This document shows, piece after piece, positions 14,453 to 60,744 of a stretch of 64,000 nucleotides of DNA. Source of the stretch: an archaeon HR01 (GTDB taxonomy: Archaea; Thermoproteota; Nitrososphaeria_A; Caldarchaeales; Caldarchaeaceae); the NCBI GenBank assembly GCA_002898355.1, contig BEHD01000010.1, positions 2,637-66,636 on the forward strand. Reading direction: 5' to 3'. Under the pieces are notes generated by a model. That model ran no database searches and had not been told where the DNA came from. It worked only from the letters and a program-made list of their open reading frames with translations. Position numbers and translations under genes: made by a program. The first letter of the stretch is position 1; each line of letters opens with the position of its first letter.

Positions 14453-15253
14453 TTGTTTATTAAAAACAGGGTTTTAAGAGTTAAATATCATCTACTAATT
14501 ATAACTTCGTTAAGGCAGTCTTTATTATCTGGTCCCACATGTGTAGGTGGTTGGGTTTTGAGTCTTATATCCCGTGAGTGGGTTACTTGTTCAAGTTGCG
14601 GTAGGAGGACCCTCAAGAGCGGCTATTGTATGTGGTGTGGTAACAAGCTAGTTGAGCGGGAATTTACCAGTGTGGCCCCTGCGGGAGACCAGCAAGCACA
14701 GCCTCCCAAAACAATAGCCTTCAACTATGTTTTCAAGGTTGTCTTCTTGGGGGATATAGCGGTCGGGAAGACATCAATTATAAAAAGATATGCCCTTGGA
14801 CAGTTCTCACCTGAATATTTCCCCACCTTCGACCTCACAACCTACTCAAAGACGCTAGAATATCCCCCAATCAAGATAGATTTAACAATCTGGGATACAG
14901 CCGGCGGACTGCCGGAGGAGGATAAGGTTGGCCCTGTAGTTACAGGGGTGGATGTGGGGGTGTTGGTCTTTGAGGTGTCTAGGAGGAGTAGCTTCAACAA
15001 TATTCCAATCTACCATCAGATTGTGGAGAAGTTCAATCCTAAAGCCCATATACAGGTAGTGGGAAATAAGTTGGACCTGGGTTTTAGGCAGGTTGAGAGA
15101 TCGGAGGGTGAGGCTTTGGCAGCCAAGCTTGGAGGCTCATATATAGAGACCTCAGCCACCCTTGGCACCAATATAGATAAGCTGTTTAACAGGAATATTA
15201 TGGAATGCCTTAAAAACAGGCTTGACGCCTTAAAAAAGGAGTTAGAGGGGTAA
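14453..15253 (+). CDS. Ras/Rab-like small GTPase with N-terminal C4 zinc ribbon
   Basis: Zn ribbon CSSCGRR...CMWCGNK. G1 GDIAVGKTS, switch I Thr, G3 WDTAGG (Gly replaces catalytic Gln), G4 GNKLD, G5 ETSAT. Confidence 0.7.
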   Translation: MFIKNRVLRVKYHLLIITSLRQSLLSGPTCVGGWVLSLISREWVTCSSCGRRTLKSGYCMWCGNKLVEREFTSVAPAGDQQAQPPKTIAFNYVFKVVFLGDIAVGKTSIIKRYALGQFSPEYFPTFDLTTYSKTLEYPPIKIDLTIWDTAGGLPEEDKVGPVVTGVDVGVLVFEVSRRSSFNNIPIYHQIVEKFNPKAHIQVVGNKLDLGFRQVERSEGEALAAKLGGSYIETSATLGTNIDKLFNRNIMECLKNRLDALKKELEG

Positions 15254-16305
15254 TGGTGTTAGAGGATTCGATACTCCGCAGGAGTGATGTTCTACAATTA
15301 CTGAGTCAGCTGAGGTCGGGGAAGGTTAAGGAGTTAAGGCCGGTTTTAGACCCTTTGAAGGGATTCCGGTATCCAACCGCTGAGGAAGTCATAAAAACAG
15401 GCACGGATGACGTGAACTATATTCTAAACACGTTGGCCAGATTAGACGTTCTCAGAGGAGAAATCCAAGAATCTCTAAATGCTTGCAGCAAGTGTGGAGG
15501 TGCTTCACACTTCTTCACTTATAGATGTCCTTCATGTAGCTCATCCAAACTTGAGAAGGGGCCCGTGCTGGAGCATCTTGTATGCGGCCATGTGGATTTC
15601 GAACAGGCATTCGTCAAAGGCGGGGTCTACCAGTGTCCCAAGTGTAAGAAAACCATGACCACTCTGGGAGTAGATTATAGGCGGCCGGGGACATATTACA
15701 AGTGTCTCAACTGTGGCCGGATAAGCGCCATACCAGCCAGACACTACATCTGTGTTAGCTGTAAAACAGATTCTGAGGAGGAGGGTCTCATACTTTTCTC
15801 AGGCTTTACATACACATTAAACCCAGAAAAGATAGATGTCATATCCAACTACACGTTAGATCTCAATCCACTTATCAATTTTGTTCAATCCAAAAACTGG
15901 CTGCCTATCACCCCGGCAACACTGAAAGGTAACTCGGGCGTCAGCCACACCTTCACATTCCTCGCTCATCCTTCATATGCGCCGCCAAGGGAAGGGGTAG
16001 CTATCGATGTTGATATCTCTGACGAGCCTGTGGACCAGCAGCGTGTGTTAACCCTTTTCTCAAAAGCCCTCGATGTGGGTGTGAAAAATACTGCCCTAGC
16101 AGTTGTCGGAGATGTCAACGAGTCGGCCAGATCCCTCGCAAAGGCTTTCGGGATAATGTTGTTCATCGGAAAAACTGTTGAAGAAGTCTACAATAGCCTG
16201 TTTTCGTATTTGGGAGACTTGATAGCTAGAAAAAGTAAGGAGAGCTTGCGTGTTGAGGCGGAGTATCTGGAATCCCTTATCAGATCGCTGGAGAGAATAA
16301 GCTAG
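15253..16305 (+). CDS. multi-zinc-ribbon protein with winged-helix-like N-terminus (hypothetical regulator/partner of GTPase)
   Basis: TAATG stop/start overlap with GTPase gene. Five CxxC pairs (CSKCGG, CPSC, CPKC, CLNC, CVSC). C-terminal approx 150-aa domain of unknown family. Confidence 0.5.
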   Translation: MVLEDSILRRSDVLQLLSQLRSGKVKELRPVLDPLKGFRYPTAEEVIKTGTDDVNYILNTLARLDVLRGEIQESLNACSKCGGASHFFTYRCPSCSSSKLEKGPVLEHLVCGHVDFEQAFVKGGVYQCPKCKKTMTTLGVDYRRPGTYYKCLNCGRISAIPARHYICVSCKTDSEEEGLILFSGFTYTLNPEKIDVISNYTLDLNPLINFVQSKNWLPITPATLKGNSGVSHTFTFLAHPSYAPPREGVAIDVDISDEPVDQQRVLTLFSKALDVGVKNTALAVVGDVNESARSLAKAFGIMLFIGKTVEEVYNSLFSYLGDLIARKSKESLRVEAEYLESLIRSLERIS

Positions 16306-18133: not shown

Positions 18134-19018
18134 GTGCGGTATTTACGAGATTTAAATAGTTACCGTGACATGCCAGATAATAGAATGAGTGGGCTGTTTG
18201 AAGGTGTGAAATCCTCAGTCCCGGTGGTGCTTTCGTTGGCTATCACCTGGTTTCTCACCTATATCATTTCGGGTGGGCCACCGCCTCCAGCCCCTGCAAT
18301 CACACCCATCCCCGAGCCTGCTGGAGATTCTGGACAGGCCCTCTATGCCCCAGCCCCATATCTGAACACGTTGATTGTTTTGACAACCCTAGTGGCGGGG
18401 GGAGTCATCATGGTATACCTGCTCCACCATCACCGAGCCCTCAAAGTCTTCGCTGCCTCACTTACTGCCGCAGCATCCTTCTCGGTGACAAGTTATTTTC
18501 TTCTCTTAGCCAGCCCATTGGATGGGCTCTTCGTCTTCACCATCTCGGGTCTCGCCGCATTAGCTGTTCTCTACTCCATCTTCAAGCGGGGAGGGGTGCC
18601 ATCAGTGTTAGCCTCTGCTTATGTGGGTGCATCGGCAGGCTCCGTTATGGGCATCTCCATACCTTACTGGACAGCCATCATAGTGTTGATAGGGGTCTCA
18701 GCATACGATATTGTAGCCGTCTCTATAGGTCCTCTCAAAGTATTAGGGAGTGATAAAGTCGGGAGGATACCTGGGTTAATGGTGGACTTTGGAGGCATCA
18801 GCCTAGGGATGGGTGACCTCTTCTTCTACTCTGTTGCGCAATCCTTCTCCATCTATCATTGGGGGCCCCAGGCTGGCCTGATGTCAACAACAGGTCTCGT
18901 AATAGGCTTCCTTACAACAGTATACCTCGCTGGAAAAAGACGCATTATCGCCGGACTCCCACTGCCCCTCACCCTCTCGCTTGCACTAGGCTATCTAGCA
19001 GGCTCTCTCCTTCAGTAG
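18134..19018 (+). CDS. GxGD-type intramembrane aspartyl protease candidate (presenilin/SPP-like A22, or prepilin-peptidase-like)
   Basis: Polytopic membrane protein, 294 aa. YD motif (GVSAYDIVAV) and GxGD motif (LGMGDLFFYS) about 40 aa apart in adjacent TM helices. P-x-L near the C-terminus. Confidence 0.45.
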   Translation: MRYLRDLNSYRDMPDNRMSGLFEGVKSSVPVVLSLAITWFLTYIISGGPPPPAPAITPIPEPAGDSGQALYAPAPYLNTLIVLTTLVAGGVIMVYLLHHHRALKVFAASLTAAASFSVTSYFLLLASPLDGLFVFTISGLAALAVLYSIFKRGGVPSVLASAYVGASAGSVMGISIPYWTAIIVLIGVSAYDIVAVSIGPLKVLGSDKVGRIPGLMVDFGGISLGMGDLFFYSVAQSFSIYHWGPQAGLMSTTGLVIGFLTTVYLAGKRRIIAGLPLPLTLSLALGYLAGSLLQ

Positions 19019-23465: not shown

Positions 23466-24338
23466 GTGAATTCTTCTGAGTTTGTGGCTGCCTGCTGTCA
23501 ATCAGGCCTGTTACTGGAGCTTGCCACCACACCCAAGCCGGGGCTGGTGGACAGGATGTCAAGAGTCTCCGAGTTCGACAAGTTCCTTATCTCCGCCGTG
23601 GTCCTTTATAGACACTTTAGGAGGGCGGCTGAGGGGTTGCCTGTTGGGAAATGTATCGAGGATGCGTGTAGGGATATGCTTTTACGGCAGAGTGGTGGGA
23701 ATACCCATCTAGGCGCTGTCCTATTGTTGATGCCTGTGGCGGCGGCCGCCCGTACATACGGTGATGCAGAACAGCTGCGGGGAGGGCTGAAGGCATTACT
23801 GAAGGAGCTGGATTACCGTGACACCATTTCTATTTTCAGAGCTGTGAGGATGGTACGCCCAGGCGGCTTGGGCAGAGTTGGCTTCCTCGATGTGATGGAT
23901 GAGCGTACCTTCGAAAAGATAGTCAGGAATAGGATAGGCCCCCTTAAGGCGTTAACTCCGTACAGGGAGTGGGATGTGGTGGCCCATGAGTATCTGACCG
24001 GCTACGAGGCATGTTACAGATTTGGATTCAGATATCTCAAGGCTGAGATAGATTCGGGTAAGGGTTTTAACGAGGCAGGGGTCAACACCTTTCTCAATAT
24101 TATGGCGAACATTTGGGATACCCATGTGATAAGGAGGCATGGTAGGCCCTCAGCGAGGATGCTCTCCCGGATGGCCCGCCGTGTGCTTGATGCTGGTGGA
24201 GCCTCCACTGAGGAGGGTGTGGAGGCTCTGGGAGAGTTTAGGATGAAGGTGGAGAGGGCCGGATACAGGCCCGCCGCCTCGGCCGACATACTGGCTGTTT
24301 CATTCACATTGTTGATGTTGGATGGGTGGAGTCCCTAA
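23466..24338 (+). CDS. CitG/MdcB-family triphosphoribosyl-dephospho-CoA synthase-like protein
   Basis: LELATTPKPGLVDR motif is characteristic of the CitG family. About 290 aa. Confidence 0.55.
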   Translation: MNSSEFVAACCQSGLLLELATTPKPGLVDRMSRVSEFDKFLISAVVLYRHFRRAAEGLPVGKCIEDACRDMLLRQSGGNTHLGAVLLLMPVAAAARTYGDAEQLRGGLKALLKELDYRDTISIFRAVRMVRPGGLGRVGFLDVMDERTFEKIVRNRIGPLKALTPYREWDVVAHEYLTGYEACYRFGFRYLKAEIDSGKGFNEAGVNTFLNIMANIWDTHVIRRHGRPSARMLSRMARRVLDAGGASTEEGVEALGEFRMKVERAGYRPAASADILAVSFTLLMLDGWSP

Positions 24339-31639: not shown

Positions 31640-32530
31640 TTGGACTTGAGTCATGTAGATGTTCAGTCTGAGAGGCCACGCCACCCCATCCCAGTCGACT
31701 GGGTCAGCGTCTCCAATCTAAGGATTCCATTTCATAAACTAGAAGATGACGGGGTCAGACTCGCCTCGGCACCAGTAATAAGCGCTGGGATAGGTCTCCC
31801 AAAGCATCAGAGGGGAATCCACGCATCTAGAACCTATGAGGCGATCACATCTGTTTTGTCTGATCTAGACCTTCATGGCATACGGCTCGGCGGGGATGTG
31901 GTGGGTGAGATAGCCCGTAAGATGTTAAGTCTCCACTCCTATGGCTCTGTATCGAGGGTCGTCGTCAAGGCAGAAGCCTTCTACTGGGATAAGACGCCTG
32001 TCTCCAACCTAAGCTCTCTTCAAAGCTTTCATCTAATCTATAGGGCTGACGGACAAAGGCTTGGAGACTCGATACATGTCAAGGATTTTATCGGTGTAAA
32101 AGTTGCAGGGATGACGGCGTGTCCATGCGCAAAGGAGGTTATCAAAAAAATATACAACATAGACGACACACCTCTTCCTATCGGAACACATATGCAGCGT
32201 AGTTTCGCCAAAGTCATAGTTCAGAATGGGTACGGCATCAAACTAAGCGACTTGCTGGGCCTAGTTAGGAGCTGTTTCAGCAACAGAACAGTAGAGTATT
32301 TGAAGAGAATCGATGAGGCAAAGCTTGTGGCAGATGCTTTGGAGAGGCCCAGATTTGTGGAGGACGTAGCAAGAGATATCGTCCACAACATCGTCACCGT
32401 ATATAGTCACATACCCGACGATAACAAGATATTCGTATGGGTGAAATCACTCGAAAGCATACATGAACATAATTTGGAGGCTCGAATCTGTATTAGTTTC
32501 GGAGAAGCTAGACGTCATATAGGATTCTGA
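31640..32530 (+). CDS. mptA: GTP cyclohydrolase FolE2/MptA family (GTP cyclohydrolase IB)
   Basis: About 300 aa DUF198 architecture with metal-binding TACPCAKE motif (CPCS/A box of FolE2/MptA). Confidence 0.6.
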   Translation: MDLSHVDVQSERPRHPIPVDWVSVSNLRIPFHKLEDDGVRLASAPVISAGIGLPKHQRGIHASRTYEAITSVLSDLDLHGIRLGGDVVGEIARKMLSLHSYGSVSRVVVKAEAFYWDKTPVSNLSSLQSFHLIYRADGQRLGDSIHVKDFIGVKVAGMTACPCAKEVIKKIYNIDDTPLPIGTHMQRSFAKVIVQNGYGIKLSDLLGLVRSCFSNRTVEYLKRIDEAKLVADALERPRFVEDVARDIVHNIVTVYSHIPDDNKIFVWVKSLESIHEHNLEARICISFGEARRHIGF

Positions 32531-32531
32531 G

Positions 32532-33323
32532 TTGGACCTGGGCCGCTGGCTAGAAATATACCGGGAAATATGTGATATACTCAGGATAGACCCCCGTAAG
32601 GATATAGAGGCTGCAACAATTTTGGCAGATATAATCCATGATAGATGTCTAAGCAGACGTGAGATAGTGGAGCTCCTAGGTGTTCGGAGGGCTGTGGCCA
32701 TATTTGGTGCCGGTCCTTCACTGGTTAAGGACCTTTCAAAAGCGCTCCCGGTTATAGAGAAGGAGGAGGTTTTGAAAATTGCCGTTGACGGCGCATGCCG
32801 TGCTTTCCTCGAGAAAGGCATAGTCCCAGACGTGGTTGTAACAGACCTAGATGGAGGTGATGAATATCTCGAGAGGTGCTCGATGTTGGGATCACTTATG
32901 GTGGTACACGCCCACGGAGACAACATATCCAGCCTGCTGAGAGTGGTGCCTAATCTCAGGGGTCCGATACTTGGAACGACGCAGACTAAGGTGGTCCCGC
33001 CGTTAGAAAACTTCGGCGGCTTCACAGACGGCGATAGGGCGGTCTGCATGTTTGAAGAGCTGGGATATGACACTATTATTATAGCTGGTATGGACTTCGG
33101 TACGGAGATAGGGCAATTTTCCAAGCCCTTACCCCCCACAGCTGAATTTCTCAACAGAAAGATAGTGAAGCTGAAGATAGGCCGTAAAATTCTAGAAAAT
33201 CTGGCCTGTATTTCGAGGGCCAGCTTCTACGATTTAACGGCCAATTCTTCGGATATACCGGGGTTCAGGAAGCTAGGATGGGAGGATATCTATGAAATGC
33301 TTATGAGCGGCCGTATGAGGTAG
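32532..33323 (+). CDS. mptE: DUF115-family protein, probable 6-hydroxymethyl-7,8-dihydropterin pyrophosphokinase (MptE-like)
   Basis: AIFGAGPSL and VVVTDLDGG motifs of DUF115. Immediately 3' of the mptA-like gene. Confidence 0.5.
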   Translation: MDLGRWLEIYREICDILRIDPRKDIEAATILADIIHDRCLSRREIVELLGVRRAVAIFGAGPSLVKDLSKALPVIEKEEVLKIAVDGACRAFLEKGIVPDVVVTDLDGGDEYLERCSMLGSLMVVHAHGDNISSLLRVVPNLRGPILGTTQTKVVPPLENFGGFTDGDRAVCMFEELGYDTIIIAGMDFGTEIGQFSKPLPPTAEFLNRKIVKLKIGRKILENLACISRASFYDLTANSSDIPGFRKLGWEDIYEMLMSGRMR

Positions 33324-39552: not shown

Positions 39553-40860
39553 TCAAGTCGGAAGGTTTAATGCTCTGAGAATCTCGATGTGTGGGTCAGA
39601 CCTAACGGGGAAGTATATGAAGGCCCATAGCAGCTGCGCTACTGTGATGGCTAGAAGGACCGCCCTAGAAAATTTTCCATCATCCAGCATGTATGAGAGC
39701 CCTATGACGAGTCCTGGAAGAGACATGACGAAGTAGAAGGGATAAACCCACCGGTTAAAGAGATACGCGATAGGATAGTAGATGCCATAGTTTAGAGCCA
39801 GCCAGGATAGTGTGAAGGATTCAACCCTGATATCTACATGGTTTCTCCTGTTTATGATTATCCTGTGGATGGCTGTGGGGATGACGACAAGTGTGGTCCA
39901 CCAGTAGGGGCTGTAGATACCCCAGTAGGCTATGGGATGCCAGGTCTTCTCTCCAGCAGAAGCTGTCACGACGTTGAAAGGCATGGGTTGGAATTGCTGT
40001 ATAGGCGATATCCAGCTGAAGGGGAGGTCTATGATGGTGCCTGAGCGCTCGACACATCTAAAGGGTAGGATGTAGGATACGCATGTGTATCTGAGTTGGG
40101 TGTGGTAGGCTAGCATGTAGTCGAGGTGGGCGAAGGGGTTGTTATAGGCTCCGAACCAGAGGTCGTAGAAAGTTAGTCCGGCTAAGAACAACGCCATCAT
40201 AGGGATGGATGTCCTCTCGAAAGCCCTCAGTGTTTTCTGGACTGCATCCCCCCACCCACCATCACTAAGGGAGTTGAGGAAAGTGTATGTCAGCAGGCCT
40301 AGATATGCGAAGAGGCTGGAGGTCTTGGAGAGGAGGGCGAGGGATAGGATCAGGCCTGAAAGGATGTACTGGTTTCGGATGTATAGAAAGGCTCCTAGGA
40401 CGGTGAAGAAGACGGCTGGGCCGTCAAGAATTGCTATAGAACCCACGTTGAGGAACATTATATCGGCGCCCAACAGCACGGCCGAAACCCAGACCACAAC
40501 CATGCGGCGTGTCAGCTCCCACGCCAGTAATACCAGGAAGCCCACCGCTATGGATGAGAGAATCGATGGGAAGAACCGCCAGCCTATAGGGTTGTCTCCG
40601 AAGACCCGTATCCCGAGGGCTATCAAAAGCTTTGAGAGGGGCGGATGCTCGTTGTTTACAGCTTCTCCGTTGAGGAGTTTTCTGGCTGCTGGGACATAGT
40701 AGTATTCGTCAAAGATTAGAGCACATTCGGTGGGCGGCTTCTCTATACACTGTTCAGGGGGCAGGGAGGGTGATGGATAGTTGATGATAGCAATTCTGAG
40801 ACCTACAAGGATTAGGATGGTGGCTAGGGCGATAATGTATGGCTTCTTCAACTCTATCAC
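39553..40860 (-). CDS. GT-C fold membrane glycosyltransferase (PMT/ArnT, GT39/GT83-like)
   Basis: Multi-TM. First-loop acidic motif region FDEYYYVPAARKLLNGE and overall dolichyl-phosphate-sugar transferase topology. Confidence 0.55.
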   Translation of the reverse strand: MIELKKPYIIALATILILVGLRIAIINYPSPSLPPEQCIEKPPTECALIFDEYYYVPAARKLLNGEAVNNEHPPLSKLLIALGIRVFGDNPIGWRFFPSILSSIAVGFLVLLAWELTRRMVVVWVSAVLLGADIMFLNVGSIAILDGPAVFFTVLGAFLYIRNQYILSGLILSLALLSKTSSLFAYLGLLTYTFLNSLSDGGWGDAVQKTLRAFERTSIPMMALFLAGLTFYDLWFGAYNNPFAHLDYMLAYHTQLRYTCVSYILPFRCVERSGTIIDLPFSWISPIQQFQPMPFNVVTASAGEKTWHPIAYWGIYSPYWWTTLVVIPTAIHRIIINRRNHVDIRVESFTLSWLALNYGIYYPIAYLFNRWVYPFYFVMSLPGLVIGLSYMLDDGKFSRAVLLAITVAQLLWAFIYFPVRSDPHIEILRALNLPT

Positions 40861-42422
40861 TTCAGCTTCTTACACATGTATGGGCCTATCCTCTCATAAC
40901 CCAGCTTACGGTAGTAGTTTCTCACGCCAACCCCGCTGATGACAGCCACTCGGTCAAGTCCGTAATCCTCCATGGATATCCTCTCCGCCTCAGAGAGGAG
41001 CATCCTCCCAAATCCCCTATGCTGGGCGGATTTAACTTCAGGATTCCCGCCAACGGGGGTCATGACACCGTACACGTGTAGCTCCCTCACCAGAGAGGAA
41101 TTCTCCAGCTCCTCCCTAAGACACCGACCGGGTATTCTAAGCCTAATAAAGCCTATCAGCGAGTCAGTATCCTCATCATCCAATGTTATAAACCACTCGT
41201 CTCCATGGCTGGCACGGTATCTGAGACGGTTTATGGTCAGCCTCTCCCATAGAGCAGGCCTCCGGCCTACCTCCCTACATCTTATGCACCGGCACCTACC
41301 CTCCATCTTGCCCTCCACCTCCTGTCTAAGGTTTGCCACCCTGCAGCCATCTAACGCATATTCTAGAGGTATCTCCCTCAAAACCCTATTAACCCTCACG
41401 TAGGGCGGTATGTCTTTAAAGAACTCGGATAAAACCCGTATCAGCTCTCTGTCGCTGTAGGGCCTGTAGAGGCCCTTCCTCCACATCTCCTCAAGCCCTG
41501 TGCCGGGAAGAACAAGGGTTGGATATATCTTGAGCATGTCAGGCCTGAAATCTTCAGAGCGGAAAAGCCTTTGAAGCATCTCAAGATCTTTCTCAGGGGT
41601 TGAACCTGGCAGGTTGGGCATCATATGGTAGCAGACCTTGAAAGCGAGGTCCTTCAGGTCGGCCGTCGCCTCAACCACATCAGCCACGCTGTGTCCACGA
41701 TTAACACTTTCAAGAATGCCGTCATCTAACGTTTGGACCCCCAGCTCAACCCTAGTCACACCCATATCAACCAGCTTCCTTGCCTGGGGATATTTGGCCC
41801 AGTCGGGCTTGGTCTCGACGGTTATTCCTGACACGTGTATGGCCGCATTCTCAGCATTCTGGAGGGCTGTCTCCAAATCAGGTGAGACTACACCATTCAA
41901 CGCATCAAGACATCCCTTAATGAATTTACGTTGGAAGTTTTCCGGGGTGGCTGTGAATGTTCCACCGATAATTATTATCTCGACCTTATCCACATTATGG
42001 CCTAGGCTACGGAGCTTCTCCAACTTCATCAATGTCTGCCTGTATGGGTCGTAGCCGGCTTCACGGGCTTCGATGATGACAGGCTCTCTACCGGTATAGC
42101 TTTGGGGTGTTCCCTGCTGAAATCCCCCAGGGCAGTAGATGCATTTGCCGTGTGGACACGAGTATATGGGGGCTACAACTGTAATCACGGATACACCTGA
42201 CACAGTTTTGACTGGTTTCTTTCTCAGCAGTGTCCGAAGCCAGGCTGGGTCTTCGTCTTTTAGGGCTTGGTAGAGCTGGTTGTTGGAGGGTATCACTGAT
42301 AGGCCGAGTCTCCTGACAGCTTCTAACTTCGCCTTGTGAAGCTCTTGATATGTGGATGGCTCAGCCTCCAGGAGGTACTGGATAACATCTCTAAGGCTCT
42401 CCCTATTCAGGGTCTCTAGCAA
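40857..42422 (-). CDS. elp3: Elp3-family radical SAM / GNAT tRNA wobble-uridine modification enzyme
   Basis: Radical-SAM CPHGKCIYCPGG, TIM-barrel core, C-terminal GNAT (HRGFGRMLLSEAE). 521 aa. Confidence 0.85.
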   Translation of the reverse strand: MLETLNRESLRDVIQYLLEAEPSTYQELHKAKLEAVRRLGLSVIPSNNQLYQALKDEDPAWLRTLLRKKPVKTVSGVSVITVVAPIYSCPHGKCIYCPGGFQQGTPQSYTGREPVIIEAREAGYDPYRQTLMKLEKLRSLGHNVDKVEIIIIGGTFTATPENFQRKFIKGCLDALNGVVSPDLETALQNAENAAIHVSGITVETKPDWAKYPQARKLVDMGVTRVELGVQTLDDGILESVNRGHSVADVVEATADLKDLAFKVCYHMMPNLPGSTPEKDLEMLQRLFRSEDFRPDMLKIYPTLVLPGTGLEEMWRKGLYRPYSDRELIRVLSEFFKDIPPYVRVNRVLREIPLEYALDGCRVANLRQEVEGKMEGRCRCIRCREVGRRPALWERLTINRLRYRASHGDEWFITLDDEDTDSLIGFIRLRIPGRCLREELENSSLVRELHVYGVMTPVGGNPEVKSAQHRGFGRMLLSEAERISMEDYGLDRVAVISGVGVRNYYRKLGYERIGPYMCKKLK

Positions 42423-43366
42423 TTCTCCCTCCCCAGCCTACGGACCATACGGCTTATCCACCTTAAGGCTCTATAGGGCCTCGGCCCCAGCGGACCGCCC
42501 AGAACCACCTCATCATAGCCCAGCTCAATAATATTAGCTATATGCTCCTCTAGACGTTCAGGCTTCCCCCATATACTGAAATAATCCACCCAGTCGCCAT
42601 CTGAGACCTGATAAAGTCCCTCCCAGTCAGAGGTCTCCAAGCAACGTGCCACCCTACCCCTCAGCTCCTCCGATACGCCAATCCTCTCCAGATATTTGGG
42701 GCTGGACCCTGCCATAAGGTATGCGGCGAAGGGGACAGCGGTCTTCCTTGCCTTTCCAGCATCTTCGTGGATAGATACGATGAGGTGCACAGCCATGACG
42801 AAGTCTCTTCCTCCAGTTAAGGCATCCCTGACATTTTCCTTGGCCTCCCTAATCATTTCAAGGTTTGACCAGTTGACTAATACCCCGTCTCCAATCTGCG
42901 CAGCCAGCCTCATCATCCTAGGACCCTGAGCCCCCAGAAAGATGGGAAGCCTCTTCACAGGCGGCATCTCCAGCCTAGGCCCCTCCGAGAAGATTTTCCG
43001 CAATCTTTCGACGAAGAAGGATACCTCCTCGACCGGGTTCCTCCTCTCTATACCAAGTCTGGCTAGTGAGAGTTTATCTCCGGCCCCCACAGCCAGCCTA
43101 AACCTATCGCCGGCCATGTCGTTTAGAGTCGTCATTATCTGGGCTATGGTGATGGGGTGGTGTATGTAGGGGTTTACCACTGACGGGCCAAGGATTAGCC
43201 TTCTGGTTCTCCTAGCCGCCTCCGAGAGGGCTATGAAGACGTTGCGGTTGAAGAAATGGTCGCTCATCCAGAGACCGTCAAAACCCAGACCCTCAGCTAT
43301 CATGGCCATAAGTGCGGTCTTCCAGAGGGGGTCTCTCGGGACAAGCTCTACGGAGAACTTAGGCAT
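42416..43366 (-). CDS. luciferase-like monooxygenase-family (LLM) oxidoreductase, probably F420-dependent
   Basis: TIM-barrel LLM pattern (LWMSDHF..., GAGDK, FLGAQGPRMMRLAAQIGDG). F420 biosynthesis genes lie elsewhere in the window. Confidence 0.65.
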   Translation of the reverse strand: MPKFSVELVPRDPLWKTALMAMIAEGLGFDGLWMSDHFFNRNVFIALSEAARRTRRLILGPSVVNPYIHHPITIAQIMTTLNDMAGDRFRLAVGAGDKLSLARLGIERRNPVEEVSFFVERLRKIFSEGPRLEMPPVKRLPIFLGAQGPRMMRLAAQIGDGVLVNWSNLEMIREAKENVRDALTGGRDFVMAVHLIVSIHEDAGKARKTAVPFAAYLMAGSSPKYLERIGVSEELRGRVARCLETSDWEGLYQVSDGDWVDYFSIWGKPERLEEHIANIIELGYDEVVLGGPLGPRPYRALRWISRMVRRLGRENC

Positions 43367-48536: not shown

Positions 48537-49649
48537 TTGTTGATGCAGATAATGAGTTGGGGTAGCTATTACGACCAGCTGGAGCAGATCAAGCTAGTCC
48601 TAGCCAGAAACTTCACCGTGGTGGATGTTTACTTTGAGGCAGGCGTCTTGACATTCAAGGTCTCGGAGACATGGATTAAGGAGCGGTTCAGGGAATGTGT
48701 GAAACAGCTCAAAAGCATTAACATGATAGCCACAGCCCGTCTCGAGTCTGACGGCGTCAAGATAAGGGTTTATCCCTATAGGCTTCCTCCAGCCAACAGA
48801 TATAGACTCCCTATAATTCTAGCGCTAGTATCCATTGTCGCTGTTGCGGCTGATGGGTATCTCCGCTCAACTTCATCCGTATTCAACCTACTACCCATAA
48901 GATATGGGTTCCCAGATATGGTTTTCAACGCAGCCATCTACGCCACATCCCTCTTCGCTATAATCTTCATCCACGAGATGGGCCACAAGATATCCGCTAG
49001 GATAGATGGAGTGGCTACAAGCGCACCCTACTTCATCCCGGGGCTGCCAGGCTTTATACCAACTCTTGGGGCCGTGATCTTCCAGAAGGAGCCGCTTACA
49101 AACCGTGACGACATGTTCGATATAGGAGTTAGCGGCCCGGTGGCTGGATTCATAGTTTGTGTCGTTGTTACGTTTATCGCCTTCGAGACAGCTATCTGGA
49201 TTCCAATAGACCGCTACATAGGAATAATAAGCGCTATCTCGGCGGAGGGGGCTGTTCTCGAGCCCCCTCTCCTCATCCAGCTGGTGGGGATGCTTTACTC
49301 AAGGGGTGGCGAGGCACCCTTCTTTATGAACGTAGGTTTTGCGGCATGGCTTGGGTTGGTTGTTACAGCCCTAAACCTCCTGCCGATATGGCAGCTGGAC
49401 GGCGGAAGAATATTCAGGAGCTTTCTGTCGAGAAGGCAGCACATAGCCGCTTCATACATCTCAATAGCTATCTTGGTGGCCTCGGGATATTATTTTATGG
49501 CGATCATGATCCTGCTCCTGATGTCCCGTAGCGCCGATATAGCCCCCCTAGATGAGGTATCCCCCCTCTCCCCCGGCCGGAAGCTGAGCATTATAGGGAT
49601 AATGGCCATTTTGATCCTCTCCTTCGTGCCAATTAGTAGATTGTTTTAG
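48537..49649 (+). CDS. site-2 protease family (M50) intramembrane metalloprotease
   Basis: HEMGH in TM helix (IIFIHEMGHKISA) and LNLLPIWQLDGGRIF (LDG motif). Confidence 0.7.
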   Translation: MLMQIMSWGSYYDQLEQIKLVLARNFTVVDVYFEAGVLTFKVSETWIKERFRECVKQLKSINMIATARLESDGVKIRVYPYRLPPANRYRLPIILALVSIVAVAADGYLRSTSSVFNLLPIRYGFPDMVFNAAIYATSLFAIIFIHEMGHKISARIDGVATSAPYFIPGLPGFIPTLGAVIFQKEPLTNRDDMFDIGVSGPVAGFIVCVVVTFIAFETAIWIPIDRYIGIISAISAEGAVLEPPLLIQLVGMLYSRGGEAPFFMNVGFAAWLGLVVTALNLLPIWQLDGGRIFRSFLSRRQHIAASYISIAILVASGYYFMAIMILLLMSRSADIAPLDEVSPLSPGRKLSIIGIMAILILSFVPISRLF

Positions 49650-50719
49650 ATATTTTCCAGCCTAGAGCCGAGAGACTGGGCTAGGACTAAGATTTTCGCC
49701 TCCTTGCTTTTAACCCGCCACGCATATGTCAGCGCCTGATCTAGGGTGTCGGCATGCCGCGCTCCTAGGAGCTTTTCCACCAGTGATGACGGGGTTGCGG
49801 TCACCATGCATATTTTATTCTTTTCAGCTCTTTCAGCCCATAGGCCTACCCATCTCCCGAAGATGTCGTCAGAGGCCTTCTTTGTTAGGGTGTCCACAAA
49901 GCTCTGCGGCCCCAGCCCTCCGGAGCATTCCAAGGGTATGATAACCACCTTATCCTTCACATTCTCCCCCACAGCAGATATGAGGTGTATCGAGCTTGAG
50001 AGGTAGAGGTCGGTGGGGTGGCCCGGCCCTCCCAAGACAATTATATCGTAGGCTTCCTCTGATGCGAGATGGGAGCGTTGCATGACGAGCTCAGATATTC
50101 TGTCGCCTATATCCTGAGGTCTCCCCACCAATATCTCTGCGACGGCTCCGCCATAGGAGATGATAGGGATGATCGACGTGTAAACCTTCTCCAGTCTATG
50201 AAATGTTGTTATCTCTCCACCCCAGAATATGGCGGGTGATACGAGGATATCTGCTTCAGATTGGTCTGGCTGGAGCCCAGATATTTTCTCAACCCCCCTC
50301 CTTCTCAGATGTGACGCCACCTCAGATATGCACTCCCTCTCCACATGTTCGGAAAAGTAGCGCCACGCCGTCACCCTTATCTCAATATCTTTAGGGGTGA
50401 AGCCGTTTATGGATAGTTTATCGACCAACATTTCAAGAAGCTCCAGAAAGCCTTTCAAGCCTGCGACATAATCCACAACCAGTGTAACGGGCTGCCCTGC
50501 ATCCAGAACCCCTACCACACCATCCAGTGATGGTGAAGAGTCCAGCGAGGGCTGGGGTGGCTCAACAACCCTAAGGTTATCTCCGGAGCCGAAATCTGCG
50601 AATATCTCTGTTCTTCCGTATTTAAGCCAGACATCAACCACGTACAGTGCCACCATGTTTCTTGTTAATATATATCGCCACGTTAGAACAGTCATGCCTT
50701 GCAGGGGAGAGGATTTCAT
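49646..50719 (-). CDS. LarA-like / DUF2088-like protein (weak assignment); start trimmed
   Basis: ORF-track N-terminal 100 aa is Ser/Thr low-complexity antisense to the neighbour and was discarded. The remaining approx 350 aa has two-lobed alpha/beta pattern loosely resembling lactate-racemase-family proteins. Confidence 0.3.
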   Translation of the reverse strand: MKSSPLQGMTVLTWRYILTRNMVALYVVDVWLKYGRTEIFADFGSGDNLRVVEPPQPSLDSSPSLDGVVGVLDAGQPVTLVVDYVAGLKGFLELLEMLVDKLSINGFTPKDIEIRVTAWRYFSEHVERECISEVASHLRRRGVEKISGLQPDQSEADILVSPAIFWGGEITTFHRLEKVYTSIIPIISYGGAVAEILVGRPQDIGDRISELVMQRSHLASEEAYDIIVLGGPGHPTDLYLSSSIHLISAVGENVKDKVVIIPLECSGGLGPQSFVDTLTKKASDDIFGRWVGLWAERAEKNKICMVTATPSSLVEKLLGARHADTLDQALTYAWRVKSKEAKILVLAQSLGSRLENI

Positions 50720-51326
50720 AGAGACGTTGATGGGGAGGAGGAGCTCCAAGCTGTTGAGGCCGGGGTATGTGCCTAGGGAGGTGGTGATTAAAGCCCTCGA
50801 GGCAGGTGTTTCGGCGGCTAACGCCCACAACGCACAGCCCTGGCGTTTTATAGTCGTTGACGACAAAGCCGTAATGGAGGAGCTTCTAAAGGAGATGGAG
50901 AGGTTGTGGCGGAGAGACTTGGTGGATGACGGGCTTGACGTGGAGAAGGTGGATAAGATAGTGGAGAACGCCGTCGGCAGAAGCCGTCGGGCTTCACTGC
51001 TTCTGGTGGCCTGCCTCACTATGGAGGATATGGATAAGTACCGAGATAGCGTGAGAAATCATTACGAGTACATTATGGCAGTCCAAAGTGTTGCTGCCGC
51101 TCTCCAGAATATCCTGCTGGCCCTACACGCTATGGGATATGGTGCTTGCTGGAGATGCTCAGCGCTCTTCGCACCTGAAGCTGTGAGGAAGGTTCTTGGG
51201 CTTCCTGAAGACTTGATACCGCAGGCCTTGGTTGAGGTCGGGTTAAAAGGTGGGGAGACGAAGGGTGTGAGACGGCCTCTGGGGGAGGTGGTTCACCATA
51301 ACAGGTGGGGTGTGGCATATTGTTGA
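50694..51326 (+). CDS. nitroreductase-family flavoprotein (FMN-dependent NADH/F420 oxidoreductase fold)
   Basis: LLRPGYVPREVVIKALEAGVSAANAHNAQPWRF is the nitroreductase N-terminal signature. 3' end overlaps the cofD start by about 20 bp. Confidence 0.7.
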   Translation: MPCRGEDFIETLMGRRSSKLLRPGYVPREVVIKALEAGVSAANAHNAQPWRFIVVDDKAVMEELLKEMERLWRRDLVDDGLDVEKVDKIVENAVGRSRRASLLLVACLTMEDMDKYRDSVRNHYEYIMAVQSVAAALQNILLALHAMGYGACWRCSALFAPEAVRKVLGLPEDLIPQALVEVGLKGGETKGVRRPLGEVVHHNRWGVAYC

Positions 51327-52246
51327 CAGCTTTAGCTGGCGGTGTGGGAGGCTCTAAGCTTCTTCTCGGGTTGAAGTATGAGATGAACGGTGTGGGCACG
51401 GCAGTGGTCAATACCGCAGACGACGAGGAGTTTTTCGGCCTACACGTATCACCCGACATAGACACGGTCATCTACACTCTTTCAGGGCTGGCTGACGAGT
51501 CAAAGGGATGGGGGATAAGGGGCGACACATTCCACACCCTCGAAATGCTTGGCAGGCTAGGATGCGAGACATGGTTCAAACTAGGTGATAGAGACTTAGC
51601 CATCCACATCTATAGGACGATGAGGCTGAGGGCTGGCGCATCACTCACTGAGGTGACCGCCGAGATAGCTGAAAGGCTTGGGGCAGGGTGGAAGATACTG
51701 CCAATGACTGATGACAGGGTACGGACATGGATAGAGACTCTTGAAGGGCCTATGCCTTTCCAGACATACTTCGTTAAACGTGGGGCCGCCGACAGAGTTG
51801 TATCCATCGAGTACAGGGGTGTTGAGAGGGCAAGGCCCAGCCGGGAGGTGGTTCAGGCCCTTAAGGAATCTGACGCTGTAATAATCTGTCCCAGCAACCC
51901 CTTTCTCAGCATAGAGCCCATCCTAAGGCTTGAAGGTGTTAGAACACTTCTTAGACAGATGGACGGCGTGGTGTTGGCGGTGAGCCCGATAGTGGGTGGT
52001 AGAGCTTTAAAGGGGCCGGCTGCCAAGATTATGGCCGACCTAGGCATGGAACCATCACCAGCCTCAGTGGCCGAGCTCTACAGAGACTTTCTAGACATCA
52101 TGGTTTTGGATAGAGTTGATGCGCATTACGTTGATGAGATTTCCTCGATGGGGATAAAGACAGTCATAACCGATACAATCATGAATTCTCTGGATGAGAA
52201 GAGGGCTTTGGCCAGAAGATGTCTTGAGGCGGTGGGTATTATTTGA
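51305..52246 (+). CDS. cofD: 2-phospho-L-lactate (or EPPG) transferase CofD, F420 biosynthesis
   Basis: UPF0052/CofD N-terminus ILLTALAGGVGGSKLLLGL and overall approx 310-aa CofD architecture. GTG start. Confidence 0.8.
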   Translation: MGCGILLTALAGGVGGSKLLLGLKYEMNGVGTAVVNTADDEEFFGLHVSPDIDTVIYTLSGLADESKGWGIRGDTFHTLEMLGRLGCETWFKLGDRDLAIHIYRTMRLRAGASLTEVTAEIAERLGAGWKILPMTDDRVRTWIETLEGPMPFQTYFVKRGAADRVVSIEYRGVERARPSREVVQALKESDAVIICPSNPFLSIEPILRLEGVRTLLRQMDGVVLAVSPIVGGRALKGPAAKIMADLGMEPSPASVAELYRDFLDIMVLDRVDAHYVDEISSMGIKTVITDTIMNSLDEKRALARRCLEAVGII

Positions 52247-52842
52247 GAAGGGCCGCAATAATACCTGTTAAGAGGCTTTCAGATGTGAAGAGTAGGCTGG
52301 GAACCAGGCTGGAGAAGTCTGAGAGGGTTGGCCTTAGCGTCTCAATGCTCAGCCACGTGGTCCAAGCATGTATGGAGGCGGGCTTCCACCCAGTATGCGT
52401 CTCGCCAGACCCTGAGGTTGAAAAAATCGCCAGAACCCAGCGGTGGGGGTACATAAAAGACCGTGGTAAATCCCTCAATACTGCGGTGGAGAAAGCGTTA
52501 AAGAGCCTTTCAGCCCAAGGCTATAAAGAGTTGGTGGTTGTACACCCCGACCTCCCCCTACTCACACAGAAAGATTTGAAGCAGATATCGACGTTGGCCC
52601 GGTTTTCAGATGCGGTAATCTGCCCAAACCTCGACGCATCAGGCACCAACATAGTCTACCTCCGGAGACCCAGGGCTTTTCATCCAAGATATGGGAGAAA
52701 CAGCTATGTACGCCATCTAAAGGGCTTCACATCCAGAGGCTTCGCAGTCAAGACCTACATCTCCCTAGGGACAGCCCTCGACTTGGATACACCCAGAGAC
52801 CTAAGACTTCTTTCTCTTCTTCGCACTTCTCCTCAGGGCTAG
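52243..52842 (+). CDS. cofC: 2-phospho-L-lactate / PEP guanylyltransferase CofC, F420 biosynthesis
   Basis: AAIIPVKRLSDVKSRL N-terminus typical of CofC/MobA-like NTP transferases. TTG start overlapping the cofD stop. Confidence 0.7.
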   Translation: MRRAAIIPVKRLSDVKSRLGTRLEKSERVGLSVSMLSHVVQACMEAGFHPVCVSPDPEVEKIARTQRWGYIKDRGKSLNTAVEKALKSLSAQGYKELVVVHPDLPLLTQKDLKQISTLARFSDAVICPNLDASGTNIVYLRRPRAFHPRYGRNSYVRHLKGFTSRGFAVKTYISLGTALDLDTPRDLRLLSLLRTSPQG

Positions 52843-54165
52843 ATAGGCTATGACCATCAACAGGGGTATCACCAGAAGCAGCTCCAAAACCAGCGGTAGA
52901 ACGGCGCCGGTCTCGGGCACAGAACTGGTGGGTGAGACCGTGGTTATGACGGTTGTTTGGGGCCTGCTCAAATCCACCTCACCAACAAAAACCTCAGCCC
53001 TATTGCCGACAGAATCCACAGCCACAACACTCATCAAAACCTTGGTTGCCCCACTGGGTGGATGGTAAACCGCCGAGTACCTACCGTCAGGACCGCCAGC
53101 CATAGCGACAGTCTCATTGCCGGAGACATAGACCCCTCTATAGATTGTGGCAACCGCTAAAACTCCGTCGGCTCCGATATCGCCTTCAGGGTCTTTAACC
53201 GTCGCAAGAACCTCCACCACACCCTCCCCAGTCTTCAAAGATGCCTCACTGATCTGTGGCGGCTTGGAGTCTGAGACCCAAGCCAGCGACTGTGATGATG
53301 AATCGATAAACCATAGTTTTTTATCTGAGCCGATGGAGGGTGTTGAGGGGATTACCTCGGGTAGCATTTTCTCTGATAGCTGGCCGTTCTCCACCACACC
53401 CAAGACCCTCCGATTGGGACTGGCATAGTAGAGTTTCCCGTTCGCTGCCACTATCTGAGGGTCAACGGCGGTACCAGACGGAAGCTCTACAACGGTTGAC
53501 GGCCGCTCCCAGCCCACCATGGATATTATCTTCCTCTCAACGGTGACCGCCCACAATCTCTCCCCCTCCGAGTCGACACCTACGACGACCCCGCCCAGCT
53601 CCACAGTCCTCACCTCAGACCCCCTCAGGACATGGATTCTCTGGAGGGATTCATCCAAGGCCCAGACGTAGCCTCCCGAGGCTGTGAGAGTGTTTAAACC
53701 ATCGGCAAGGGGTAGGTTATAGGCCTCCACAAGCTGGGAGGATTCTATATCGTATACAGCTAGAGTCCTAGCCTTCGGCATGGACACGAAGAGCCTCCCA
53801 TCGACATCCATGTCTGACGGCTTTGAGTCCAGCTCTATCCTGCCCAGCTCCCGACCGGATGTATCGTAGATCAGTATCTGGGGCGGTGTCTCGAGCTGGA
53901 GGAATATCCTATCCTGGGTCGTTAAGACCTTGGAGGGTACGCCGTCTAGGGCCACCTCCACATAGCGGCTGGCGGCGTCGTTGTAGATGCCGAGGACAGG
54001 CCTGTTGGAGAAGACTATGGCTACATTCTCTCCTCCTCCAGCAGATATTTGGGAGGGTACGCCTGTGGATGGTATGCTGACAAACCTAGGGTTTGAAAGT
54101 CCGTTGACTATCTGCGGAAAGCTTAGAAGTATTAAAAAGGCTAGGAATAGGAGGGCAACCCGCAT
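52801..54165 (-). CDS. secreted beta-propeller-like surface protein with C-terminal TM anchor
   Basis: Signal peptide MRVALLFLAFLILLSFPQIVNG. Repeated beta-strand blades. C-terminal TM LPLVLELLLVIPLLMVIAYLAL plus RRSAKKRKKS tail. Confidence 0.5.
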   Translation of the reverse strand: MRVALLFLAFLILLSFPQIVNGLSNPRFVSIPSTGVPSQISAGGGENVAIVFSNRPVLGIYNDAASRYVEVALDGVPSKVLTTQDRIFLQLETPPQILIYDTSGRELGRIELDSKPSDMDVDGRLFVSMPKARTLAVYDIESSQLVEAYNLPLADGLNTLTASGGYVWALDESLQRIHVLRGSEVRTVELGGVVVGVDSEGERLWAVTVERKIISMVGWERPSTVVELPSGTAVDPQIVAANGKLYYASPNRRVLGVVENGQLSEKMLPEVIPSTPSIGSDKKLWFIDSSSQSLAWVSDSKPPQISEASLKTGEGVVEVLATVKDPEGDIGADGVLAVATIYRGVYVSGNETVAMAGGPDGRYSAVYHPPSGATKVLMSVVAVDSVGNRAEVFVGEVDLSRPQTTVITTVSPTSSVPETGAVLPLVLELLLVIPLLMVIAYLALRRSAKKRKKS

Positions 54166-59035: not shown

Positions 59036-59115
59036 TAAATTTATAAATAGTTTCGGGATTGACGCTTATATTTTGCTGTTTTTCTCTCCCTTTCACCCGG
59101 TTCGGGGGTGTTCTC

Positions 59116-60744
59116 ATGGTCAAGTGGAAGACTTTACAGCATAACGGGGTTGCCTTGCCCCCACCATATGAGCCGAAGGGGCTCAGTATATGGATAAGGG
59201 GGGAGAAGATACCCCTCACACCTCTACAGGAGGAGATGGCCTATGCTTGGGCGCTCAAGAAAGATACACAATATGTTAGAGATCCCGTATTCGTCAGAAA
59301 CTTTCTCAAGGATTTCCTAGCGACCTTCGATGAAAGATTCAGAGACGCAACCATTGAGGAGATAGACTTCGGCGAGGTCTTCCAATATGTTGATAGGGAG
59401 AGGGAGCTGAAGAAGGACAAGGAATATAGGAAGAAAATTTCGGCGGAGAGGAAGAAAAAGAGGGAGGAGCTTAAGAACATCTATGGATACGCCGTGGTTG
59501 ATGGTAAGAAGGTTGAGGTGGGGAACTGGATGGTGGAGCCTCCAGGGATCTTTATGGGTAGGGGTGAGCACCCACTACGGGGTAGGTGGAAGCCGAGGAT
59601 ATATGAGGAGGATATCACGCTCAACCTTGGCGAGGAAGCACCTATTCCACCGGGCAACTGGGGACAGATAGTCCACGACCATAATTCGATGTGGCTGGCC
59701 AGATGGAATGATAAGCTGACCGGGAAGGAAAAATATGTATGGCTCTCCGATACGGCAGACCTCAAGCAGAAGAGGGATAGGGAGAAGTATGAGAAGGCAC
59801 GGATGCTGGAGAAGCATGTAGAGGATGTGAGGGCTGCAATCCTGAAGACCATGGAGTCGGAAGACCCTCGAAAACGGAAGATTGCACTGGCTTGTTTCCT
59901 GATTGATAGGCTGGCTATGAGGGTTGGCGATGAGAAGGACCCTGACGAGGCTGATACTGTAGGCGCCACCACACTGAGGGTTGAGCATGTGAAGCTCTCA
60001 GGCACAAAGGTCTCCTTCGACTTCTTAGGCAAGGACAGTGTACGCTGGCAGAAGGAGATAGACTTGAGGAATGAGCCTCCTATAGTTCATAAGGCCCTTT
60101 CAGAGCTCCTGGAAGGGAAGAGGCCGGGGGACCAGATATTCGACGGCATATCCAGCAGGTCTGTTAACAATTTTCTCGGCAAGCTTTTGAAGGGGTTGAC
60201 GGCCAAGGTCTTCAGAACATTCCTGGCCACAAAAGTTGTGAAGGATAGTCTGAGGAATGTGCCTCTCGAGAAGGCTAAGACCTCAGAGCAGGCCGCCATC
60301 TATTATGCAAAGCTGGCCAACCTCAACGCAGCCATAACCTGCAACCATAAGAGGGCGCCGCCCAAGAACTGGGAGAACTCCATAGCGAAGAAGGAGGAGG
60401 CCGTGAAGAGGATTGAAGAGCAGATAAGTGAGGCTAGAAGGGATAAGAAGAAGAGGAAGAAGCTGGAGAAGCTCCGGGAGAGGTTGGAGAAGGCCCGCTA
60501 TAATCTAGATCTGGCCCTTAAGACGCGGGACTACAACCTCAACACATCGCTGAGAAACTACATAGACCCCAGGGTCTATAAGGCTTGGGGATTAATTACG
60601 GGGATGGATTGGAGGCGCATATATTCGGCTAGCCTTCAGCGGAAGTTTAAATGGGTTGAGCGGGCTTCAGTCAAGGAGTTTGTCGCCGAGATAATCTCCG
60701 CTCCAGAGCTGAAGGCTCAGGCGGTCACACAGGTTGGAAGCTGA
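59116..60744 (+). CDS. DNA topoisomerase IB, eukaryotic type
   Basis: N-terminal KWKTLQHNGVALPPPYEPKG matches the TOP1 core. Catalytic-Tyr box TSLRNYIDPRVYKAW (SKxxY). Start set at MVKWK (the ORF-track start at 59059 adds an unlikely extension). Confidence 0.85.
   Translation: MVKWKTLQHNGVALPPPYEPKGLSIWIRGEKIPLTPLQEEMAYAWALKKDTQYVRDPVFVRNFLKDFLATFDERFRDATIEEIDFGEVFQYVDRERELKKDKEYRKKISAERKKKREELKNIYGYAVVDGKKVEVGNWMVEPPGIFMGRGEHPLRGRWKPRIYEEDITLNLGEEAPIPPGNWGQIVHDHNSMWLARWNDKLTGKEKYVWLSDTADLKQKRDREKYEKARMLEKHVEDVRAAILKTMESEDPRKRKIALACFLIDRLAMRVGDEKDPDEADTVGATTLRVEHVKLSGTKVSFDFLGKDSVRWQKEIDLRNEPPIVHKALSELLEGKRPGDQIFDGISSRSVNNFLGKLLKGLTAKVFRTFLATKVVKDSLRNVPLEKAKTSEQAAIYYAKLANLNAAITCNHKRAPPKNWENSIAKKEEAVKRIEEQISEARRDKKKRKKLEKLRERLEKARYNLDLALKTRDYNLNTSLRNYIDPRVYKAWGLITGMDWRRIYSASLQRKFKWVERASVKEFVAEIISAPELKAQAVTQVGS

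Follow-up and report, generated by a model that had tools for sequence, protein, structure and literature searches.

Dehydro-F420-0 is reduced by FbiB's C-terminal domain with reduced flavin mononucleotide (FMNH2) (Bashiri et al. 2019, PMC6450877), and the same study postulated an enzyme, 'CofX', encoded remote from cofE (PMC6450877). Stand-alone nitroreductases of Thermomicrobia are also able to reduce dehydro-F420 (DF420), according to the citations of Braga 2020 in PMC8498797 and PMC8764529. A review of 2021 named the stand-alone DF420 reductase FbiE and reported independent homologs in predicted archaeal F420 producers (PMC8498797), a paper of 2024 assigned the step in organisms with CofE only 'possibly' to a stand-alone nitroreductase 'or a yet-unknown enzyme', and later work favours 2-phospholactate (2-PL) as the precursor in methanogens. 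A text search of the literature found no later paper on archaeal FbiE. Here we describe a 64-kb stretch of DNA from the hot-spring archaeon HR01 (Aigarchaeota/Caldarchaeales), referred to as the window when its whole length is meant, in which a stand-alone nitroreductase-fold gene (NTR, 50694-51326) is followed by cofD and cofC. We consider it likely that this NTR-cofD-cofC operon uses phosphoenolpyruvate (PEP) to make the side chain of F420-0, with the NTR product acting as the dehydro-F420-0 reductase. The concept has already been published as a prediction, and the gain is one of confirmation and extension, not of discovery; new here are a clean Aigarchaeota case, the breadth of the NTR-cofD-cofC order, the full set of fusions and the correction of a protein name.

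At NCBI, a protein from archaeon HR01 matched the NTR product at 100% identity, which identified the source, and the next-best matches (53-68% identity) were proteins of Caldarchaeum/Aigarchaeota and of Nitrososphaerota metagenome-assembled genomes (MAGs). The original prediction had described an NTR that overlaps cofD, a cofD that overlaps cofC and a LarA-like gene divergently upstream, and this arrangement was confirmed, overlaps included, with the genes at or near the positions it gave. The identities of the genes are established, and the three that share a strand probably form one tightly packed, translationally coupled operon.

Among family models, those of FbiB described the HR01 NTR best. 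TIGR03553 (F420_FbiB_CTERM) gave 119.6 bits. The FbiB model PRK13294 gave 122 bits with the match confined to its C-terminal part, the BluB model gave 55 bits and models of the NfsA/NfsB type gave 41 bits or less. The best sequence match in the PDB was the C-domain of Mycobacterium tuberculosis FbiB (4XOM, 4XOO and 4XOQ; 4xom at E 2e-22 over residues 14-196), followed by a generic NTR with 59 bits. A structure was predicted with AlphaFold2 from 38 homologs (predicted local distance difference test score, pLDDT, 91.5) and compared with the PDB by Foldseek, and the top 11 matches were all FbiB C-domain chains, with about 30% identity, template modelling (TM) scores of 0.75-0.87 and root-mean-square deviations (rmsd) of 2.5-3.8 Å; the ranks below were taken by BluB-like proteins, AlbA and further NTRs, with lower identity and mostly larger rmsd. 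A neighbour-joining tree of 42 sequences (202 columns, 100 bootstraps), a simple distance method, recovered in 100/100 bootstraps a clade of 27 sequences comprising all cofD-cofC-linked NTRs, all fusions, the Thermomicrobium roseum NTR and the M. tuberculosis FbiB C-domain, and placed 14 NTRs without F420 neighbours, together with 3gfa, outside it. The phylogeny proposed in the original prediction as a check thus joined the HR01 protein to FbiB C-domains and not to generic NfsA/NfsB-type enzymes. Homology to the reductase domain and the shared fold are established, and, judged by alignment and predicted structure, the HR01 NTR is a homolog of the FbiB C-domain and not of NfsA/NfsB type. In NCBI and JGI records, NTRs of 205-210 residues go by the name 'coenzyme F420-0:L-glutamate ligase', yet have no ligase domain; the NCBI name 'Coenzyme F420:L-glutamate ligase' for the HR01 protein is a misnomer.

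The gene order is conserved well beyond HR01. A synteny scan with one genome per GTDB species returned 42 loci, 11 of which carry NTRs with 41-68% identity, and 10 of those 11 had enough downstream DNA to be informative. In every one of the 10, NTR, cofD and cofC follow one another in that order on the same strand, overlapping or no more than 26 nt apart; the loci come from Caldarchaeum, an unclassified Nitrososphaerota MAG, Nitrososphaerales/Nitrososphaeria, Methylarchaceae, Bathyarchaeia and, among bacteria, one member of Anaerolineales (Chloroflexi). No cofD or cofC was detected within 10 kb at loci whose NTRs are 33% identical or less. Because the adjacency recurs in 10/10 related loci with enough DNA, across archaeal orders and in one bacterium, it is far beyond chance, and the linkage to cofC and cofD expected from HR01 was borne out. 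The Nitrososphaerales loci have a convergent cofE after cofC, and in the Anaerolineales locus the order is fno-cofE-PNPOx-NTR-cofD-cofC-LLHT. T. roseum has cofD-cofC-transporter-NTR on its megaplasmid, and the NTR there is 38% identical to that of HR01 (E 2e-39). Upstream of NTR, lineages other than that of HR01 carry an Asp-tRNA synthetase or an FGGY kinase. The latter, an FGGY-family carbohydrate kinase divergently upstream of NTR-cofD-cofC in a Bathyarchaeia MAG (L009, 966-2411, minus strand), was seen at one locus only and is probably coincidental. To our knowledge the lactate kinase ('CofB') has never been identified.

Natural fusions tie the same clade to F420 enzymes. When 1.84 billion cluster representatives (50%-cluster level) were searched exhaustively with HMMER and the matches scanned with Pfam, the closest relatives were found to include CofC-NTR fusions (P0130 and P0171), an NTR-CofD fusion (P0139) and the CofE-NTR architecture of FbiB (P0151 and P0195). 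Fusion to CofC, CofD and CofE alike is strong Rosetta-stone evidence that the clade acts on the F420 side chain. Two further proteins (P0141 and P0148) have a PNPOx/FDOR-like split-barrel domain at the N-terminus of an FbiE-like NTR, a domain that could be the partner supplying reduced flavin to the reductase. In the Anaerolineales F420 cluster, a separate 130-aa PNPOx/FDOR-like gene (L011, 9594-9986) lies directly 5' of NTR. Two loci with long open frames upstream of the NTR match (L012 and L017) were considered as FbiB-type fusions and rejected, CofE queries giving no match there.

Several points weigh against the proposed function, and those that concern the family as a whole are taken first. 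The TIGR03553 score of the HR01 NTR lies below the curated cut-off of that model (249.55 bits). The same is true of the stand-alone T. roseum NTR (163 bits), of the CofC-NTR and NTR-CofD fusions (136-143 bits) and of NTRs of the ammonia-oxidiser type (about 150 bits); since these NTRs linked or fused to F420 genes score below it too, the cut-off appears to reflect a model trained on, and tuned to, actinobacterial fusion proteins and gives no ground for exclusion. In over 1000 genomes, a survey of the ten genes flanking archaeal cofE on each side retrieved only 16 NTR open reading frames (ORFs) (PMC6450877), which were dismissed for low identity and missing F420-binding residues (PMC6450877). 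An FbiE-clade NTR with 41% identity to that of HR01 and a TIGR03553 score of 140 bits was found on a plasmid of Paraburkholderia sp. PGU19 (L044, 5932-6606), with no F420 genes within 6 kb and with FAD-binding and acyl-CoA metabolism genes instead, so clade membership alone is no guarantee of an F420 context. For every archaeal member, moreover, the function proposed here is a computational prediction.

These points bear on a first alternative, in which the NTR would be a nitroreductase or flavin reductase of a generic kind, NfsA/NfsB, BluB or similar, standing beside cofD-cofC by accident. The nitroreductase superfamily is large and functionally diverse, and both the sub-cut-off score and the Paraburkholderia protein would suit such a view. 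We nonetheless regard it as very improbable, given the invariant gene order in several archaeal orders and one bacterium, the three kinds of fusion to F420 enzymes, the fully supported clade with FbiB and the scores of the BluB and NfsA/B models, which fall at least 64 bits short of the FbiB C-terminal model. With unlinked NTRs, the FbiB and BluB models gave roughly equal scores, unlike with that of HR01.

The pocket residues give a more divided picture of what the reductase might act on. Adding 241 to the chain numbering reproduced P289, R337 and M372 in the FbiB of M. tuberculosis. Docking had highlighted these three residues, of which P289 and M372 line the enolpyruvyl pocket and R337 binds the carboxylate (PMC6450877). 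M372 is conserved in the HR01 NTR as M128 (Met in 87/119 family members), H290 as H45 (His in 114/119), and the RRS flavin-phosphate motif is present and widely conserved in the family. The other two of the three docking-highlighted residues are not kept, which belongs among the points on the negative side: P289 is replaced by A44, in a column that reads Ala in 80/119 and Pro in 31/119 members, and R337 by N92. Four residues past the R337 position, R96 is invariant in the archaeal alignment and Arg in 74/119 members (Ile in M. tuberculosis), and the T. roseum NTR follows the HR01 pattern, with Arg at the later position and Gly in the column of R337.

A second alternative keeps the NTR in F420 side-chain synthesis and gives it another step or role: the conversion of enolpyruvyl-diphospho-guanosine (EPPG) to lactyl-diphospho-guanosine (LPPG) before CofD, a flavin or F420H2 oxidoreductase activity in support of the pathway, or the repair or scavenging of dehydro-F420 that arises as a side product in a pathway that runs mainly on 2-PL. 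The lost equivalent of R337 would fit it, the fusions, which involve CofC and not only CofD and CofE, mean that context does not fix the partner step, and the partial use of PEP by 2-PL-preferring archaeal CofC/CofD enzymes, described below, would create a need for a clean-up reductase. On the other hand, EPPG has been described as a labile, channelled intermediate, and the only activities reported for members of the clade, as far as the cited sources relate them, are dehydro-F420-0 and DF420 reduction, by M. tuberculosis FbiB (PMC6450877) and by the Thermomicrobia NTRs (cited in PMC8498797). We therefore judge a different step unlikely, albeit clearly less so than an accidental neighbour, and retain dehydro-F420-0 reduction as the preferred assignment.

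Whether such a reductase has a task depends on the substrate of CofC and CofD. The HR01 CofC aligned with M. tuberculosis FbiD (6BWG) and with 7P97 through the motifs 'hpDLPl', 'lDlDtP' and 'RYGRNS'; it has Gly at the G163 position and keeps Ser166 and the metal-binding motifs with their three Asp. Ser or Thr at the G163 position marks enzymes that use 3-phosphoglycerate (3-PG) (residue roles in PMC8764529 and PMC6450877). With Gly instead of Ser/Thr at this diagnostic position, the HR01 CofC is of the 2-PL/PEP type, and the 3-PG type is excluded. The CofC sequence does not separate the use of PEP from that of 2-PL; according to the literature, assays of CofC on its own cannot tell which of them is used in vivo either, CofD being a second filter. 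The archaeal CofC/CofD pairs assayed so far (Methanocaldococcus jannaschii and two Hydrothermarchaeota, none from Nitrososphaerota) prefer 2-PL and turn over PEP at 3.5-30%, and the authors of those assays restored 2-PL as the likely archaeal precursor. If 2-PL were the precursor in HR01, no reductase would be needed, the enzyme being required solely if archaea of the Caldarchaeales type use PEP. PEP as the substrate is the weakest link in the proposed function, and the conserved reductase welded to cofD-cofC is the best available argument for a dehydro-F420-0 route in these lineages. We know of no kinase that makes 2-PL.

In the pathway that we favour, CofC would activate PEP with GTP to give EPPG, CofD would move the enolpyruvyl-phosphate onto the deazaflavin FO to give dehydro-F420-0, the NTR would reduce this product to yield the (S)-lactyl group of F420-0, and CofE, encoded elsewhere in the HR01 genome, would add the glutamates. 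What we infer in this scheme is the use of PEP, the supply of the hydride by reduced FMN and the activity of the reductase itself. The original prediction had called the NTR a strong candidate for the missing archaeal dehydro-F420-0 reductase; homology to the FbiB C-domain, linkage and fusions uphold the candidacy, and the word 'missing' was an overstatement, FbiE being known and archaeal homologs of it already predicted. A wider reading, which we hold to be evenly balanced, is that archaea are split between a methanogen type that proceeds via 2-PL and a group formed by Nitrososphaerota (Aigarchaeota and relatives of ammonia oxidisers) and Bathyarchaeia that proceeds via PEP and dehydro-F420-0 with a translationally coupled FbiE-CofD-CofC module, the fusions, those to the PNPOx/FDOR-like domain included, pointing to a channelling complex with its own flavin-reducing partner. 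If true, it would locate 'CofX' and name the supplier of FMNH2. An active enzyme would mean that Aigarchaeota and the ammonia-oxidising archaea, which are of global importance, begin F420 synthesis with PEP and not with the enigmatic 2-PL. The archaeal NTR is a clonable candidate for the 'CofX' step and could provide thermostable parts for heterologous F420 production, and its recognition corrects a database misnomer that is propagating.

The divergent gene upstream of the operon had been assigned, weakly, to the LarA family and proposed to serve a 2-PL route, since LarA-type enzymes racemise 2-hydroxy acids such as lactate. An AlphaFold2 model of moderate confidence (pLDDT 73, from 6 sequences) had 18 matches in the PDB at E≤1e-5, all of the LarA family, at TM of about 0.5 and 12-15% identity. 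As these racemases are its sole significant fold matches, the assignment to the LarA fold holds. The family assignment did not extend to the active site. Profile similarity, to Mar2 (E 1.5e-10, residues 154-310) and to LarA, is limited to the C-terminal half, and the LarA-family models of NCBIfam gave 24-29 bits against cut-offs of at least 460. The N-terminal half of the protein falls about 75 residues short of that of LarA and has only Tyr, Glu, Pro, Trp and Gly as invariant residues. In L. plantarum numbering, His108 and His174 of LarA are catalytic, Lys184 tethers the nickel-pincer nucleotide and His200 binds Ni; Gln295 and Lys298 were compared as well. Over the first 200 residues of the family alignment no invariant His or Lys was found to match His108, His174, Lys184 or His200, the SDHTRP-type motif of LarA reads VDYVAG, Gln295 aligns to Ser and Lys298 to a variable His/Pro/Asn. 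Compared with LarA (5HUQ, 2YJG, 6D6Z), the divergent protein thus shares the two-domain fold and similar C-terminal motifs (GGxGyPxD and EC-x-GLG), and differs in its shorter N-terminal domain, in the loss of the catalytic His, the Lys tether, the Ni-binding His and Gln295/Lys298, and in belonging to a tiny family restricted to Caldarchaeales-like genomes (5 database relatives in a word-indexed homolog search).

A role as a nickel-pincer 2-hydroxyacid racemase, with L-lactate as its contribution to a 2-PL route and a shared promoter as its tie to the operon, would be in keeping with the exclusively LarA-type fold matches and the Mar2 profile match, and with a 52-bp divergent promoter region in common with the F420 operon in an arrangement kept in two Caldarchaeum MAGs. 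We give this alternative hardly any weight. Besides the unconserved catalytic and cofactor-binding residues, the window has no larB, larC or larE, and with a 2-PL route the reductase next to it would be superfluous. The gene adjoins NTR only in the Caldarchaeum loci L001 and L002 and is absent beside NTR-cofD-cofC in the Nitrososphaerales, Methylarchaceae, Bathyarchaeia and Anaerolineales loci, that is, outside Caldarchaeales. In the Caldarchaeum loci its other neighbour, a gene for an M50 peptidase, is kept as well, so the linkage amounts to ordinary local synteny. The proposed role in a 2-PL route was accordingly abandoned: as far as alignment and model go, the gene encodes a degenerate protein of LarA fold, not a racemase that would supply lactate, and is probably a lineage-specific neighbour that is not part of the F420 pathway.

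The features of the locus are listed in Table 1. Three start codons are candidates for cofD (GTG 51305, TTG 51320 and TTG 51323), all of which precede the NTR stop codon at 51324-51326, and the frame overlap is 22, 7 or 4 nt depending on the start. At the next junction, the TTG start of cofC at 52243 overlaps the TGA stop of cofD at 52244-52246 ('TTGA'), a junction also present in two Caldarchaeum MAGs whose CofC proteins are only about 37% identical. A start of NTR at ATG 50655 shares CATG with the opposite gene and is unlikely because the homologs measure 205-210 aa, with which the longer frame conflicts. On the minus strand, a 457-aa ORF (49646-51019) was rejected as over-extended: all homologs of the LarA-like protein begin with 'MVEVWLKYGRTEIFAD', so its start is GTG 50641 (331 aa) or ATG 50656 (336 aa), the latter less likely.

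Between the divergent genes, a single AT-rich element, TTAATATATAT, occupies 50665-50675, about 24-29 nt from the start codons on both sides. In the Caldarchaeum loci L001 and L002 the element TTAATATA lies equally far from the NTR ATG, and the remaining spacer differs. The 52-bp spacer is a putative shared archaeal TATA/promoter region from which leaderless or near-leaderless transcripts would run both ways. At the other end of the operon, a convergent gene (52801-54165, minus strand) overlaps the 3' end of cofC by 42 nt, an arrangement kept in L001-L003; its 454-aa product is predicted to be secreted or membrane-anchored and has a weak match to Vgb lyase (beta-propeller).

Table 1 Features of the NTR-cofD-cofC locus of archaeon HR01 and the matches on which they are based.
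Feature	Positions	Strand	Basis
Nitroreductase-fold gene (NTR), stand-alone, 210 aa	50694..51326	+	Pfam PF00881 94 bits, TIGR03553 119.6 bits
cofD (phospholactate/enolpyruvyl-phosphate transferase)	51305..52246	+	TIGR01819 318.8 bits (cut-off 257.45), Pfam CofD 165.7 bits
cofC (guanylyltransferase, 2-PL/PEP type)	52243..52842	+	TIGR03552 158 bits (cut-off 105)
Divergent LarA-fold gene, 331 aa from GTG 50641	49646..50641	-	Pfam LarA_C alone, 29 bits
Divergent intergenic region, 52 bp, TATA-like element TTAATATATAT	50642..50693		Sequence inspection

Elsewhere in the window, a Pfam scan of ORFs of at least 180 aa together with tblastn detected no cofE, cofG, cofH or PNPOx partner. HR01 appears to use F420, because a luciferase-like gene 8 kb from the operon (42416-43366, minus strand) has as its best match Mer, the F420-dependent methylene-tetrahydromethanopterin reductase (PRK02271, 240.5 bits; cut-off 276). 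A Mer-like gene is unexpected in a non-methanogen. Adjacent genes for a MptA/FolE2-type GTP cyclohydrolase and a MptE-like pterin diphosphokinase (31640-33323, plus strand) and a homolog of CitG-like triphosphoribosyl transferase (23466-24338, plus strand) were also found, and together with the Mer-like gene they hint at a methanopterin-type C1 carrier pathway. Several other genes are of interest for the lineage. A full-length DNA topoisomerase IB of the eukaryotic type (59059-60744, plus strand) has its N-terminal, catalytic core and C-terminal domains above the Pfam cut-offs; this enzyme is a known hallmark of Thaumarchaeota and Aigarchaeota. Directly after a gene for a small GTPase of the Ras/Roc family (Pfam Ras, 114 bits) comes an overlapping one with the TackOD1 'thaumarchaeal output domain' (14453-16305, plus strand), and the pair looks like a two-gene signalling module. 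Eukaryote-like features also include a homolog of presenilin-like membrane proteases, exactly at the Pfam threshold (18134-19018, plus strand), and an ELP3 radical-SAM/GNAT protein (40857-42422, minus strand).

With regard to the postulated 'CofX', the HR01 NTR fits a separate enzyme remote from CofE, the window being without cofE; the postulate covered archaea generally, methanogens included, whereas, among archaea, the NTR clade was found only in Bathyarchaeia and in archaea of the Nitrososphaerota type. With the C-domain of M. tuberculosis FbiB the HR01 NTR shares the fold, about 30% identity over some 190 residues, the pathway context and the residues Met372 and His290 and the RRS motif. 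It differs from FbiB in not being fused to CofE, adjoining cofD-cofC with cofE elsewhere, in the replacements of P289 by Ala and of R337 by Asn with a conserved Arg four residues later, and in its sub-cut-off TIGR03553 score. The T. roseum NTR considered here is TRD_RS12805, which may be the protein assayed by Braga in 2020. Its gene stands after cofC and a transporter gene in a bacterium, whereas the HR01 gene, in an archaeal host, comes first in the order and overlaps cofD. The Thermomicrobia FbiE and the HR01 NTR have in common that both are stand-alone proteins of about 210-225 aa, both score below the TIGR03553 cut-off and both fall in the same clade with 100% bootstrap support.

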